Positions 27,001 to 31,767 of a stretch of 64,000 nt of DNA are shown here, in pieces. A program made the position numbers. Within the stretch, counting starts at the first letter, position 1; the number at the start of each line of letters is the position of its first letter. The DNA is from Escherichia coli (GTDB lineage: Bacteria; Pseudomonadota; Gammaproteobacteria; Enterobacterales; Enterobacteriaceae): NCBI RefSeq assembly GCF_003018255.1, contig NZ_CP027441.1. One strand, 5' to 3'.

Positions 27001-30000
27001 CAATGCGGGTTCGTCATCTCCTCCGGCGGTCTGGTTCGCGTACTCACCGAACCGGCAGAGGAAACACCCGGAGCAACACCTCCGCCCCTTCCGGGGTATC
27101 CTGCAGGCGGATGCGTTCACAGGTTATGACAGGCTGTTCAGTGCAGAACGTGAAGGTGGTGCGCTGACAGAAGTTGCGTGCTGGGCCCATGCCCGGAGAA
27201 AAATCCACGATGTATACATCAGCAGCAAAAGTGCGACGGCAGAAGAAGCCCTGAAGCGAATCAGTGAACTGTACGCCATCGAGGATGAAATACGGGGATT
27301 ACCGGAGTCAGAGCGTCTTGCAGTCAGACAGCAGCGAAGCAAAGCGTTACTGACGTCGCTGCATGAATGGATGGTGGAGAAGAATGGCACGCTGTCGAAA
27401 AAATCCAGACTGGGCGAAGCGTTCAGCTATGTACTGAATCAGTGGGACGCCCTCTGTTATTACAGTGATGACGGACTGGCGGAGACGGACAATAACACAG
27501 CGGAAAGAGCGCTTCGTGCAGTCTGTCTTGGAAAGAAAAATTACGTGTTCTTCGGTAGCGATCACGGTGGCGAGCGTGGTGCACTGCTATACGGGCTGAT
27601 CGGCACCTGCCGTCTGAACGGTATCGATCCGGAAGCGTATCTGCGCCATATTCTGAGCGTACTGCCGGAATGGCCCTCCAACCGTGTTGACGAACTCCTG
27701 CCATGGAACGTGGTTCTCACCAATAAATAAGCGTCAATACGGTGCTCCGTTGACGCTTACGTAAAAACAGTGAAAAGTTAATGAAAACACTCGATGAACT
27801 GAACCAGTCGGGAAAAGGGAAAGTGTGGTTTGCGGGGCGAGGAACCGCCCCTGAATGGCAAATGAAACGGGAAATGTTGAGTCAGTGTGATACAACTAAA
27901 TGGCGAGATATTCCCCTAGCTAGGCTGGGTTAGTTCAGTCATCTCCGAACATATTTTCAGCGTTTCTTCTGGTCTGGTCTTCACCGTCATTTCTCGACAG
28001 ACTCTGCTCTGTAAGAGGAGTACTGCAATCCACAGACGTATGGAGACCAGATTGTTTTTCCAGTAATTCAAGCAATTTCTTTTCAACTGAAAAAGCACCT
28101 GGTATTACGCTGGAAATCACCTTATTAATATCATCCAGAGTCGTATTTTCTGTCAGTAACTCCGATATCAGCAAAGGAAGACGTTTATCTATAGCTGCAA
28201 ACGCCGCACCAGTAACTAACATCGCGCGCATGAAACGTCCCCGCTCCTTCAGTTTTTCATTTGCAATGAGCTCATCTGCAATCTTATCTCCTATCCGTTC
28301 ATCCGGGAAAAGTTCAAATGAGCAGCGTCTGGATTTATTTTCATCACTCATTAGTCACACCACCTTTCATTTTTATCATTCCCATGACTAAATCAAACTG
28401 CGGGGATGAGCTCAGATAAAAGCGCTCATCAGGAACCTTAGTCAGGTTCTTCACAGCCTCGGCCACAATTTCAGCCCCACCACCAACACACATTACATGT
28501 GTATAGTCGGTGAAACGGCTGATGACATCATTAACTCGTTTAATAAGCAACTTCTGCCGTTCATTGATAACATTAATGATAGACTCACGCTGTTCAGCAT
28601 TATAAATGCGACGGGAAAGGTAGTCAGGTTCATTACGGTGCACAATGATATTGTCAGCCTGGAATGAGCTCACTCTTGTATTAGCATGTACAGCCATCTG
28701 TTCCTTAACCCCGGATGTAATCAGGGACACGCCGATATTCGGATCACACCAGGTTTTTGTAATCCCTGTCATTTTGCTACGAACATGCGACACATCAAGA
28801 GTTGTACCACCGAGATCTACGATCAAAAGGGATTCATCATCCTCAAGCCCCGCAAGAACACTGAAACCAGCGGGAATACTTTCAGGAAGAACGGCAACAC
28901 TGCGAATAACAAATGCATCACTCCCCTGCACCCGTACTTCACGCATCACATTTTTTTTCTTTCTTTCAATGTTTTGCTTATTTTTCTGATTGTTGGCGTC
29001 AAGGTATTCAGAGATCGGCAATGTGACGATGACATCAACAGGCTGCGCTTTCAGGCCGGTCTGCTGTAGCGCATGCTGAATGGCCACAACATTCACATCA
29101 CTGTACTGATAGCGTGTTTCAGTCGTTACGACAGCATCAGCACTTAATGGATCAAATGAAAACTTCTCGCCGTCGATCTCGTAATTAGCCGGGGCAGCAT
29201 CATCCAGTAAACTAAAAGACCATTCCGGTTTAAAGCTGTTAGGGCTGATTAACGTTTTCACGTCACCATCCTCCAACCAGGCAAGTTTAATGTTGGTAGA
29301 ACCATCATCAATAAAGATTTTCATAACCAGTCTCCGTTGCTCATAAACAAATAGAAAAAACAAACATGCCTCATACATGCAATGTATATTCAATTACAAT
29401 GGAAAAATGGTCTTTCTGAAAGGACAAGTGCAACATAAAAACACGATAAACTGCATGTACATTGTACACATAACTTTAAGACCAGAGAAAACCATAGATA
29501 CAAAACCATTATGAATGGTTATATGTGATACATAAATGCAATATAAAAATATCTTTGACATCATGGTTCAGGTTAAGGGAAAAGGAATGAAATGGTGAAA
29601 CTGAGAGGAAAGGAAAGCGGTGACGAATCATGTCACCATAAACAGAGAGATGTCTAATGGGGACTCTTTAGGTACGTGAAGAATCCCCATAACGCATTTA
29701 AAAGACACACATCAGATACCCTTAAGGTATCCGATAGTTTATTGACCTATTGCACCATCACGTTCAAGCTTCTCTCTTATAGCCTCAATAATATATGAGC
29801 TAAAATCCAGAGATGTTTTACTGGTCGCTTTAAGTTCCGCATGAGCTTCAAAATACGACAGCGGTATGGCCTTAAGATTCTTAGCCTTCGTCCTGGCAGC
29901 CACGGGACGACCTGAAACTTCCTCTGCACCTTCATTTGGCTGAGACGGGGCTGTTGCTGTTACGGCAGAAGAAGAAGTTTGTAACCTGGCAGAATCCACC

Positions 30001-31767
30001 AGGTTTTTCAGTTTTTCAGCCTGTGCACTAAATTTCGCTTTGCTCATGAGATAACCCAGGATGTTTGTTAGATACTTAAAAGATATCCATTAAAAGCCCA
30101 AAGGATACTATATGGATACCCAATAGATATACCTTACTGTTTGTTATTTTCAATCAGATGATTGATTTCTTCGATCAGGGCAATAACTTCCTTACCTCCT
30201 GCCGAATAGCGCCCATGCACAGACTCAGTGATTCCCATCCCAGTCTCAATGACATCCTCAAATTCTGCACGAGCAGAAATGCGGCTCTTCATCAGCTTCA
30301 GATGTTTGAACGATGGCAGGATTGCATCAAGCTTAGGGAATTTCTTCTTGTTAGGATTAACTTTACAGAGATACAGGTGAGCAGTTATATCGGTCCCCAT
30401 GATAGAGCTGATTTCGTCCAGTACTCCATCAAAATGCATCAAACCAATACGTTCAGTCAGGGAGTCTTTTGAAGGGACAATAACGCAGTCTGCAAAGGCA
30501 ATCGCAGTACGGGTAAGATCTGAGTCAAATCCCCCACAGTCAATAAGTAACGTCTTATCGCTGTTCTTGTAGGGAGTCATAATTTCGATTAACTCATCCA
30601 CTGTTTTGGGTACTTTCACGGAAATTTCTTTTCCTTCAGGTCTCAGCCCCAGAATGATAGAAAGCCCGGTATGAGTATCCAGATCAACTGTATCAGACTT
30701 CATTTCACCAACAATGTTTACGGATGAAGTTGTCTTACCCACACCACCTTTGGGATGCGTATTAGCAATAACAGGCATAGAGTATCTCCAGAATCCACAT
30801 GTAATACCCACAAAGAACCCCAAAGACACCTTTCAGATATCCAAGAGGTACTCAATAGCTGTTTTTTTACTCTATACCGGTCCTGCATGTCAACAGAATA
30901 TGAAATACCGATAATATATCCATGAGATATCCGAAAGGGATTTAAAAAAGTCAGAGCTTAAGGAATTCTTTTGAGCATAGACACCGCATCGAACTCAGGC
31001 ATCGCAAACTGCACCCGGTGCCGTGCAGCCACATCCAGTGCAAACACCTTCGTGTAGACCTCCGTTGAGCTGATGGACTTATGCCCCATCAGGCTCTGCA
31101 GGACCTTCAGCGGTATACCGGCATACAGCATGTGCATCGCATAGGAATGGCGGAACGTATGTGGTGTGACCGGAACAGAGAACGTCACACCGTCAGCAGC
31201 AGCGGCGGCAACCGCCTCCCCAATCCAGGTCCTGACCGTTCTGTCCGTCACTTCCCAGATCCTCGCTTTCTCTGTCCTGCCTGTTCGTTTATTACGCCGT
31301 TCCATGGGGATTTTCAGTGTTGCCACCATCGTCTGCAGCTGGCTGACGTACCAGGAGTCGGAGAGCGGAACCAGCCGGTGAGTCTGCTGCCCGGCAGGCG
31401 TTCTTCCTGCCGTCCTGGCTGCTTTTTCTGTCCGCTGCTTCAGAGTGGCCAGCTGCACAAACGGATACGGAGGCACGAGCGAAAAATCCCCCCGCGTCAG
31501 CGCCAGTGCTTCATTAATGCGCGCACCGGTGTTCCACAGTGTGGCCAGCAGCATCTTGCGGCGCAGATCCGGGACGTAATGGAGCAGGGCACTCACTTCA
31601 GGGGCGAGCAGGTATTTTGGCAGTTCATCATGAACCATCGACATCTGGCGGAGTGCCAGAGCAGCCGGATAATCAATGGCAACAGGCAGCGATGCAGGCT
31701 GTCCGGCAGAATACACTGCCGGTACCATGGCTGCAGACTGGCTGTGTATAACGGAGCCTGACATTTA

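Follow-up and report, generated by a model that had tools for sequence, protein, structure and literature searches.

We analyzed a 64,000-nucleotide (nt) stretch of Escherichia coli DNA (RefSeq assembly GCF_003018255.1, contig NZ_CP027441.1), referred to here as the window, and within it a candidate plasmid partition locus at positions 29690–30960. The locus consists of two minus-strand genes, named yefA and yegA in IncI1 annotations, with short repeated motifs around and between them. The region was 100% identical to a 175-kb IncFIB/IncI-gamma hybrid plasmid of E. coli 2015C-3905 (NZ_CP027372.1). In the direction of transcription, its features were as follows, with box scores in bits and repeat units in base pairs (bp).

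30902–30934, minus strand: array U, three 11-bp units in phase (TCGGATATCTC, ATGGATATATT and ATCGGTATTTC; 10.8, 8.9 and 1.1 bits).
30864–30893, minus strand: putative sigma-70 promoter, with −35 TTGACA at 30888–30893, an 18-nt spacer and −10 TAAAAA at 30864–30869.
30779–30855, minus strand: array D, seven 11-bp units from the −10 hexamer to the parA ATG, in the presumed 5′ untranslated region (8.3, 11.1, 8.5, 0.5, 4.5, 2.8 and 3.9 bits).
30134–30778, minus strand: yefA (parA), open reading frame for a 214-residue Walker-type ParA ATPase, RefSeq start at 30778.
30048–30134, minus strand: array I, eight 11-bp units that tile the entire 86-nt spacer from the parA stop to the yegA ATG (dynamic-programming tiling).
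29739–30047, minus strand: yegA, for a 102-residue presumed centromere-binding protein with an N-terminal helix, a disordered linker and a C-terminal domain at about residues 53–100.
29702–29734, minus strand: array T, three boxes (TCGGATACCTT, AAGGGTATCTG and ATGTGTGTCTT; 10.4, 10.5 and 8.1 bits), starting 5 nt after the yegA stop.
29618–29638, minus strand: a second, putative terminator-like hairpin, GGTGAC...GTCACC followed by a T-rich tail (−9.2 kcal/mol, z = −2.9).

The heptamer GATAYCC had 20 matches on both strands of the window, 5 of them within 29690–30960, where about 0.4 were expected from the 2% of the window that this region covers. All five local matches lay on the plus strand, at 29715, 30082, 30115, 30836 and 30926. 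Read on the minus (operon) strand, the motifs were degenerate copies of a single 8-bp near-palindromic box, GGRTAYCC, placed 11 bp apart from centre to centre and grouped in four arrays around and inside the yefA–yegA operon, with about 20 copies of the box GGATATCC over about 1.25 kb. The original prediction had described scattered GATAYCC and GGATAC motifs in this region. Both motifs were indeed present, but they are the halves of one box rather than separate elements, and they are phased rather than scattered.

Phasing was assessed for each noncoding segment separately, by comparing self-identity at different lags with that of dinucleotide shuffles. Upstream of parA, the z-scores were 4.9 at lag 11 and 2.1 at lag 22; the corresponding values were 3.2 and 2.7 in the parA–yegA spacer, and 2.2 and 2.7 downstream of yegA. 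To avoid circularity, an 11-column position weight matrix was trained solely on two homologous loci, L004 from a Klebsiella pneumoniae IncFII plasmid and L005 from a Salmonella MPF_I plasmid, whose YegA homologues are 69% and 63% identical to that of the window. The consensus of this matrix was ttGGATATCct. Its core, GGATATCC, is a palindrome, which explains why both GATAYCC and GGATAC had been seen. Across the three noncoding segments, which total 311 nt, the matrix located 12 sites scoring 8 bits or more, compared with 0.26 expected from the rest of the window (Poisson probability 2e-16). First-order Markov resamples of the same segments (n = 2000) gave a mean of 0.65 sites and a maximum of 5. 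Hence, the motifs are real and more frequent than the local base composition would predict.

The arrays escaped Tandem Repeats Finder, their units being too degenerate. Three further matrix sites at 54.3 kb were spaced by 45 and 62 bp, without phasing, and were taken as chance occurrences. A box-like GGTATAG in the promoter spacer was off register with a negative score and was not counted.

Array U ends 8 nt upstream of the −35 hexamer. The promoter pattern TTGAC[AT]–18 nt–TAAAAA was retained 117–118 nt upstream of the parA ATG in the window and in the four loci L009, L003, L004 and L005, despite diverged flanks. A consensus promoter scan did not list TTGACA–18–TAAAAA because its −10 element lacks the T at position 6. 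In array D, which follows at exact 11-bp steps in a layout shared by L004 and L005, the first three units (D1–D3; TTGAGTACCTC, TTGGATATCTG and AAAGGTGTCTT) are strong and D4–D7 are degenerate, with D7 overlapping the ribosome-binding site GGAG. The longest parA reading frame would start at a GTG at 30829 and run through array D (231 residues); the RefSeq annotation and the position of the Walker A motif favor the ATG at 30778, which is preceded by this GGAG.

The strong boxes of array I start at 30124, 30113, 30080 and 30069, with unit starts every 11 nt apart from one 10-nt step. The motifs that had been noted at 30050–30130 are thus present, but their location is the spacer that runs from the parA stop (30134) to the yegA start (30047) rather than the sequence past the yegA stop. 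A search by eye revealed no convincing conserved internal promoter in this spacer, and its predicted RNA folding was no better than that of shuffled sequences (z = −0.45), so that an RNA-structure role for the spacer is unsupported.

Downstream of yegA, the first two boxes of array T form an inverted repeat at 29715–29731, with a possible RNA hairpin of −15.6 kcal/mol (z = −5.2) followed by GUGUGUCUUUU. A terminator role is possible for this hairpin and would be compatible with a role of its arms as boxes. What had been taken for a perfect palindrome near 29700 is this sequence, GATACCCTTAAGGTATC, in which two perfect 6-bp inverted arms (GATACC/GGTATC) are separated by a 5-nt centre; it amounts to a pair of boxes at the 11-bp distance. 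The second hairpin, at 29618–29638, lies between the locus and the promoter region of parM, the first gene of the neighboring operon, and probably marks the end of the transcription unit.

The product of yefA has the features of the ATPase of a type Ib system, namely a Walker-type ParA of about 200–230 residues with a deviant Walker A motif and no N-terminal DNA-binding extension. The Walker A motif KGGVGKT is contained in PKGGVGKTT at residues 9–17, and no extra N-terminal domain precedes it. YefA scored above the cut-offs of the Pfam families AAA_31 and MipZ, and it matched NCBIfam ParA_partition over its full length (E = 1.7e-14) without reaching the cut-off of that family. It was 46% identical to the ParA of Vibrio phage PhiPS02, 39% to an Aeromonas plasmid ParA, 24% to the pESBL-type ParA encoded elsewhere in the window and 19% to ParA of pB171 (E = 3e-4). 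As a Walker ATPase, YefA differs from the motor of type II systems, of which a true example, ParM/ParR, is encoded in the next operon.

YegA is encoded by a small gene on the same strand downstream of parA and combines a flexible N-terminal part with a compact C-terminal domain, as is found for type Ib binding proteins. In the family alignment, the N-terminal segment was conserved, the linker varied in length, and the C-terminal 48 residues were highly conserved. The AlphaFold model contained a helix at residues 3–19, a disordered part (predicted local distance difference test score below 50 at residues 26–42), an extended stretch, and helices at residues 63–74 and 83–97. The C-terminal domain is, on weak evidence, probably an Arc-like ribbon-helix-helix. 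Neither YegA nor its profile had a usable match in Pfam, NCBIfam or the sequences of the PDB, and annexin matches at E-values of about 1 were dismissed as chance. The family comprised 67 clusters at 50% identity among 1.84 billion representatives and corresponds to phrog_19714, of uncharacterized function. In NCBI records, YegA-family proteins of 75–120 residues are labelled ‘molecular chaperone GroEL’, ‘chaperonin’ or ‘hypothetical’; they have no similarity to GroEL, and the naming looks like a propagated misannotation. No paper on yefA/yegA was found in the literature searched.

We compared 13 further loci that encode YegA relatives. Besides L004 and L005, these included the close loci L009 and L003 (IncI1/B/O and IncF plasmids), L008 (Enterobacter IncFII plasmid), L006 (pKPC_CAV1857-43), L011 (pK432-IMP), L007 and L012 (Vibrio plasmids), L013 (Aeromonas plasmid), and L014 and L015, two of 82 matching Vibrio phage genomes; pKPC_UVA01-like plasmids were among the relatives. 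All compared loci encode a homologous ParA, 39–46% identical to YefA in those aligned. An array of 11-bp units filled the parA–yegA spacer in 14 of 14 loci, with recurrent peaks at lags 11 and 22, and an array lay upstream of parA in every locus for which upstream sequence was at hand (the upstream side of L012 was not covered). The downstream array was present in enterobacterial plasmids and absent from Vibrio L007, Aeromonas L013 and the phages. A matrix trained on the spacer of a locus was enriched in the upstream and downstream regions of the same locus, with z = 5.7 for the window and 4.8–6.5 for eight enterobacterial-plasmid loci, so that all arrays within a locus share a single type of box.

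Among the eight loci L004, L006, L011, L007, L012, L013, L014 and L015, seven had no annotated ParM/ParR in the stretch fetched (again excepting the upstream side of L012). As judged from these sequences, the arrays accompany the ParA/YegA pair and not the neighboring genes. Because the arrays persist where ParM/ParR or an integrase is not annotated nearby, these proteins can be set aside as likely binders. Moreover, the sequence of the box shifts where the DNA-binding domain of YegA diverges, as is evident when the strand region of this domain is set beside the box of each group.

Window group: strand region KNLKAIPLSYF, box GGATATCC.
Vibrio phages: strand region KHLKAVPTTYF, box AAATATCC.
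L006 and L011: strand regions KTLKAIPTTYF and KTLKAIPASYF, box GGAWTCC.
L008 and L013: strand regions KNLQIPEDLW and KRIPNLPCSYE, box ATGTACA.

The 82 Vibrio phage genomes, of 34–36 kb, encode a YefA-like ParA (46% identical) and a 79-residue YegA-like protein, at 1718–2662 in L014 (PhiPS02) and likewise in L015 (K303). The C-terminal domain of the latter protein was 72–74% identical to that of E. coli YegA, and 11-bp arrays were found upstream of parA and between the genes. This content of genes and arrays points to maintenance of the phages as plasmids (phage-plasmids).

The module is widespread: 1,130 plasmid records, mostly of conjugative Escherichia and Salmonella plasmids, carry the 1.3 kb of the locus at no less than 92% DNA identity, and it belongs to the backbone of IncI1/IncB-O-K and of many IncF resistance and virulence plasmids. 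In the window, it is flanked by ccdA–ccdB–resD on one side and by the ParM/ParR (StbA/StbB-type) operon on the other. One plasmid segment holds three partition loci, at 15295–16486 (pESBL-type), 27935–29324 (ParM/ParR, type II) and 29690–30960 (yefA/yegA).

The 11-bp repeat geometry is the only likeness to the type II systems of R1 and pSK41, in which 10–11-bp direct repeats (parC) bracket the operon promoter and are bound on one DNA face by dimers of the small ribbon-helix-helix protein ParR. Arc on its operator shares this same-face 11-bp geometry, which differs from the 7-bp wrap of omega. The motor of R1 and pSK41 is the actin-like ParM, whereas that of yefA/yegA is a Walker-type ParA, and YegA had no similarity to the ParR of the window or of pB171 (the 2JD3 sequence matched only the ParR of the window).

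For comparison with pB171, a pB171-type double par locus (L010, CP091396.1, 410–4393) was recovered through the ParR sequence of 2JD3. It presents the same frame of ccdA–ccdB–resD, a type Ib locus and then ParM/ParR as the window does at 27935–32290, with repeats upstream (parC1) and downstream (parC2) of parAB and a small ParB annotated as CopG-like. Unlike in yefA/yegA, the cassette is inverted, with par1 and par2 diverging from the shared parC1; its parA and parB overlap by 7 nt, and the repeats, read by eye, are of the type (T/A)TCA(T/C)A. The window locus is not a pB171 par2 system: in addition to the low ParA identity given above, ParB did not align and the repeats differ. The ParR encoded in the window was itself only distantly related to pB171-type ParR (E = 2.6e-6 to 2JD3).

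Of the type Ib systems, the delta/omega pair of pSM19035 from Streptococcus pyogenes resembles yefA/yegA in its Walker ParA-like ATPase, in its small binding protein with a flexible N-terminus, and in its short-repeat arrays upstream of the ATPase gene and between the two genes (PMC3074150). Promoters of both of these genes are overlapped by the omega arrays, which function as operators and centromeres (PMC3074150). In contrast, omega binds contiguous 7-bp heptads (WATCACW) with its dimers rotated around straight DNA, while yefA/yegA has 8-bp near-palindromic boxes at an 11-bp pitch, which would put its dimers on one face. No promoter is evident in the yefA/yegA spacer, and no sequence relationship between the two systems is evident, though none was tested for. 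TP228 ParF–ParG–parH is likewise of type Ib: its short boxes form a degenerate array with A+T-rich spacers, to which a ribbon-helix-helix protein binds whose N-terminal tail is flexible (PMC3130281). It differs in that parH has tetramer boxes that lie upstream only. None of the PDB sequence searches, whether run with YefA, YegA or the YegA profile, retrieved a ParF or ParG chain.

The pESBL-type par locus of the window (IncI1; Daniel et al. 2020), at about 15,295–16,486, was the one from which the original prediction had expected a distinct specificity. It encodes ParA at 15478–16104 and a 100-residue ParB at 16101–16403, and its octamer is GATAACAA (in another register, CTTGTTAT), with at least 5 CTTGTTAT units upstream and 10 downstream. 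The type Ib locus of pESBL was validated by transposon sequencing, mini-F stabilization, green fluorescent protein foci and electrophoretic mobility shift assays, and its octamer arrays flank parAB, with one protein bound per repeat (PMC7602700). Both loci pair a type Ib ParA with a binding protein of about 100 residues and of no recognizable family, and both have arrays on either side of the operon. The pESBL repeats, however, are contiguous octamers, and the pESBL parA and parB genes overlap. YegA and ParB(pESBL) had an hhalign probability of only 0.5%, and the two ParA proteins are distant, as noted above. When applied to the octamer arrays (15.3 and 16.4 kb), the YegA-box matrix never scored above 4.2 bits, no exact octamer occurred in 29690–30960, and the matrices and arrays of the two loci did not cross-match. 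The expected difference in specificity is therefore well founded.

We read the region as the portion of a type Ib plasmid partition locus that acts in cis, the locus being the yefA/yegA module of the IncI1 backbone. This is a sequence-based prediction to which we assign a probability of roughly 78%. Short-repeat arrays commoner than composition predicts lie next to the operon, and the type Ib-like arrangement on both of its sides that had been proposed was borne out, although the hexamer unit proposed with it was not, the element being an 8-bp box at an 11-bp pitch. Under the proposed mechanism, YegA dimers would each bind one GGRTAYCC box. The 11-bp pitch, about one helical turn, would place neighboring dimers on nearly the same face of the DNA and permit cooperative binding. 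Arrays U and D bracket the TTGACA–18–TAAAAA promoter, and when filled they would repress the operon (autoregulation), because array U abuts the promoter and array D occupies the presumed 5′ untranslated region. Arrays U/D, I and T, about 20 boxes in 1.25 kb, would together form the partition complex, in which the conserved N-terminal helix of YegA could stimulate nucleoid-bound YefA-ATP, so that plasmid copies are moved and spaced as in other ParA systems. Array I would probably have a further role as a second operator or a roadblock, adjusting the expression of yegA relative to that of parA. We infer that YegA, with the fold suggested above, is the protein that binds the boxes. By analogy with validated type Ib systems, the arrays that would repress the operon would also be its centromere, and the N-terminal part of YegA would activate YefA.

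Several points weigh against the partition reading. Among the 21 in-phase units, about 8 fall short of 6 bits, and D4 and I4 are essentially non-boxes. This plasmid has two other par loci, the pESBL-type and the ParM/ParR loci, and the yefA/yegA module may therefore be redundant here. No binding, stability or incompatibility data for yefA/yegA were found in the literature searched.

A more specific version of the partition reading is tentative and rather unlikely. It holds that array I is the primary centromere and, as a YegA-dependent roadblock or second operator, sets the ParA:YegA ratio, and that the 11-bp same-face boxes build a ParR/parC-like solenoid segrosome on a Walker-type motor, with parA looped out between the arrays. 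If true, the module would be a hybrid of type Ib proteins with a type II-like centromere geometry.

Alternative explanations differ in how much of the locus they account for. For array T, the inverted repeat after the yegA stop (29710–29736) could be an intrinsic terminator or an mRNA-stabilizing hairpin and not a protein site, given that a terminator scan lists its 12-pair stem with a T-rich tail, that its predicted fold is stable, and that L003 and L009 keep the hairpin with a changed loop. Yet the stem has just 4 G–C pairs and the U-tract is interrupted (GUGUGUCUUUU), while each arm is itself a top-scoring box, and both keep the 11-bp register of a third box that lies outside the hairpin. 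In L004 and L005, moreover, the same position is occupied by 11-bp phased boxes, with no comparable hairpin directly after the stop. With a better-placed, G+C-rich terminator at 29618–29638, we consider a hairpin function to the exclusion of protein binding unlikely; the two roles are not exclusive. It is more unlikely still that the boxes as a whole are transcriptional operators only, with YegA as an autorepressor that may set the ParA:YegA ratio through the spacer array, and with no centromere role or with partition lost. Known type Ib operator arrays are themselves centromeres (PMC3074150, PMC7602700), about 20 boxes and an array past the stop codon would be needless for a mere operator, and phages as well as more than 1,100 plasmid records retain the intact gene pair with its ParA. 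On the other side stand the conserved promoter between arrays U and D, the position of the intergenic array where a second operator would sit (compare the omega promoter of pSM19035), the Vibrio and Aeromonas relatives and phages without a downstream array, and the two other par loci in the window.

A neighbor's product might instead bind the repeats, either ParR/StbB of the ParM system, the ResD recombinase or a host protein such as integration host factor. The locus does sit between resD and parM–parR, and the shared region of pB171 has sites for both of its systems. This explanation is nevertheless very improbable, since the arrays persist in L007, L013 and L014, where the fetched stretches have neither ParM/ParR nor an integrase annotated, they fill the parA–yegA spacer, and the box co-varies with YegA. 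Finally, chance clustering of a short A+T-rich motif in A+T-rich intergenic DNA would be conceivable for segments of 34–38% G+C, but it is refuted by the composition-matched resamples, of which none in 2000 reaches the observed count (at most 5, compared with 10), by the Poisson probability and by the lag peaks in 14 loci.

In the IncI plasmid pS40-2, the backbone stretch from impC to ydfA contains impAB, parMR, yegA/yefA and resD, while the window has the pESBL-type locus there. Because pS40-2 differs in its content between impC and ydfA, the pESBL-type locus and the impAB–parMR–yegA/yefA–resD stretch may be alternative cassettes, joined here by a cointegrate. Two IS66-family elements follow directly after parR (26138–27730 and upstream), where IncI1 plasmids have impCAB, and they mark a junction at which the hybrid plasmid was rearranged. 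The region upstream of parM (29325–29700) contains repeats of its own at 29426–29450 and 29525–29551, of the form GTGCAACATAAAAACA / AAATGCAATATAAAAATA, and a 24-nt imperfect palindrome at 29650–29697 (GGGGACTCTT...AAGAATCCCC). The ParR centromere and one more regulatory site may be represented by these elements.

The sequence evidence indicates that yefA/yegA is most likely a type Ib partition module, very common yet uncharacterized, in which the boxes have an unusual 11-bp geometry and one array is intergenic. As such, it would add a pair of binding protein and centromere whose geometry is unlike the heptad (omega), tetramer-box (ParG) and octamer (pESBL) solutions. With a defined box, a site map and a predicted promoter, partition, autoregulation and incompatibility become directly testable. 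The module has relatives on pKPC_UVA01-like carbapenemase plasmids and in Vibrio phages, and it bears on how one plasmid can hold three partition systems without cross-talk.

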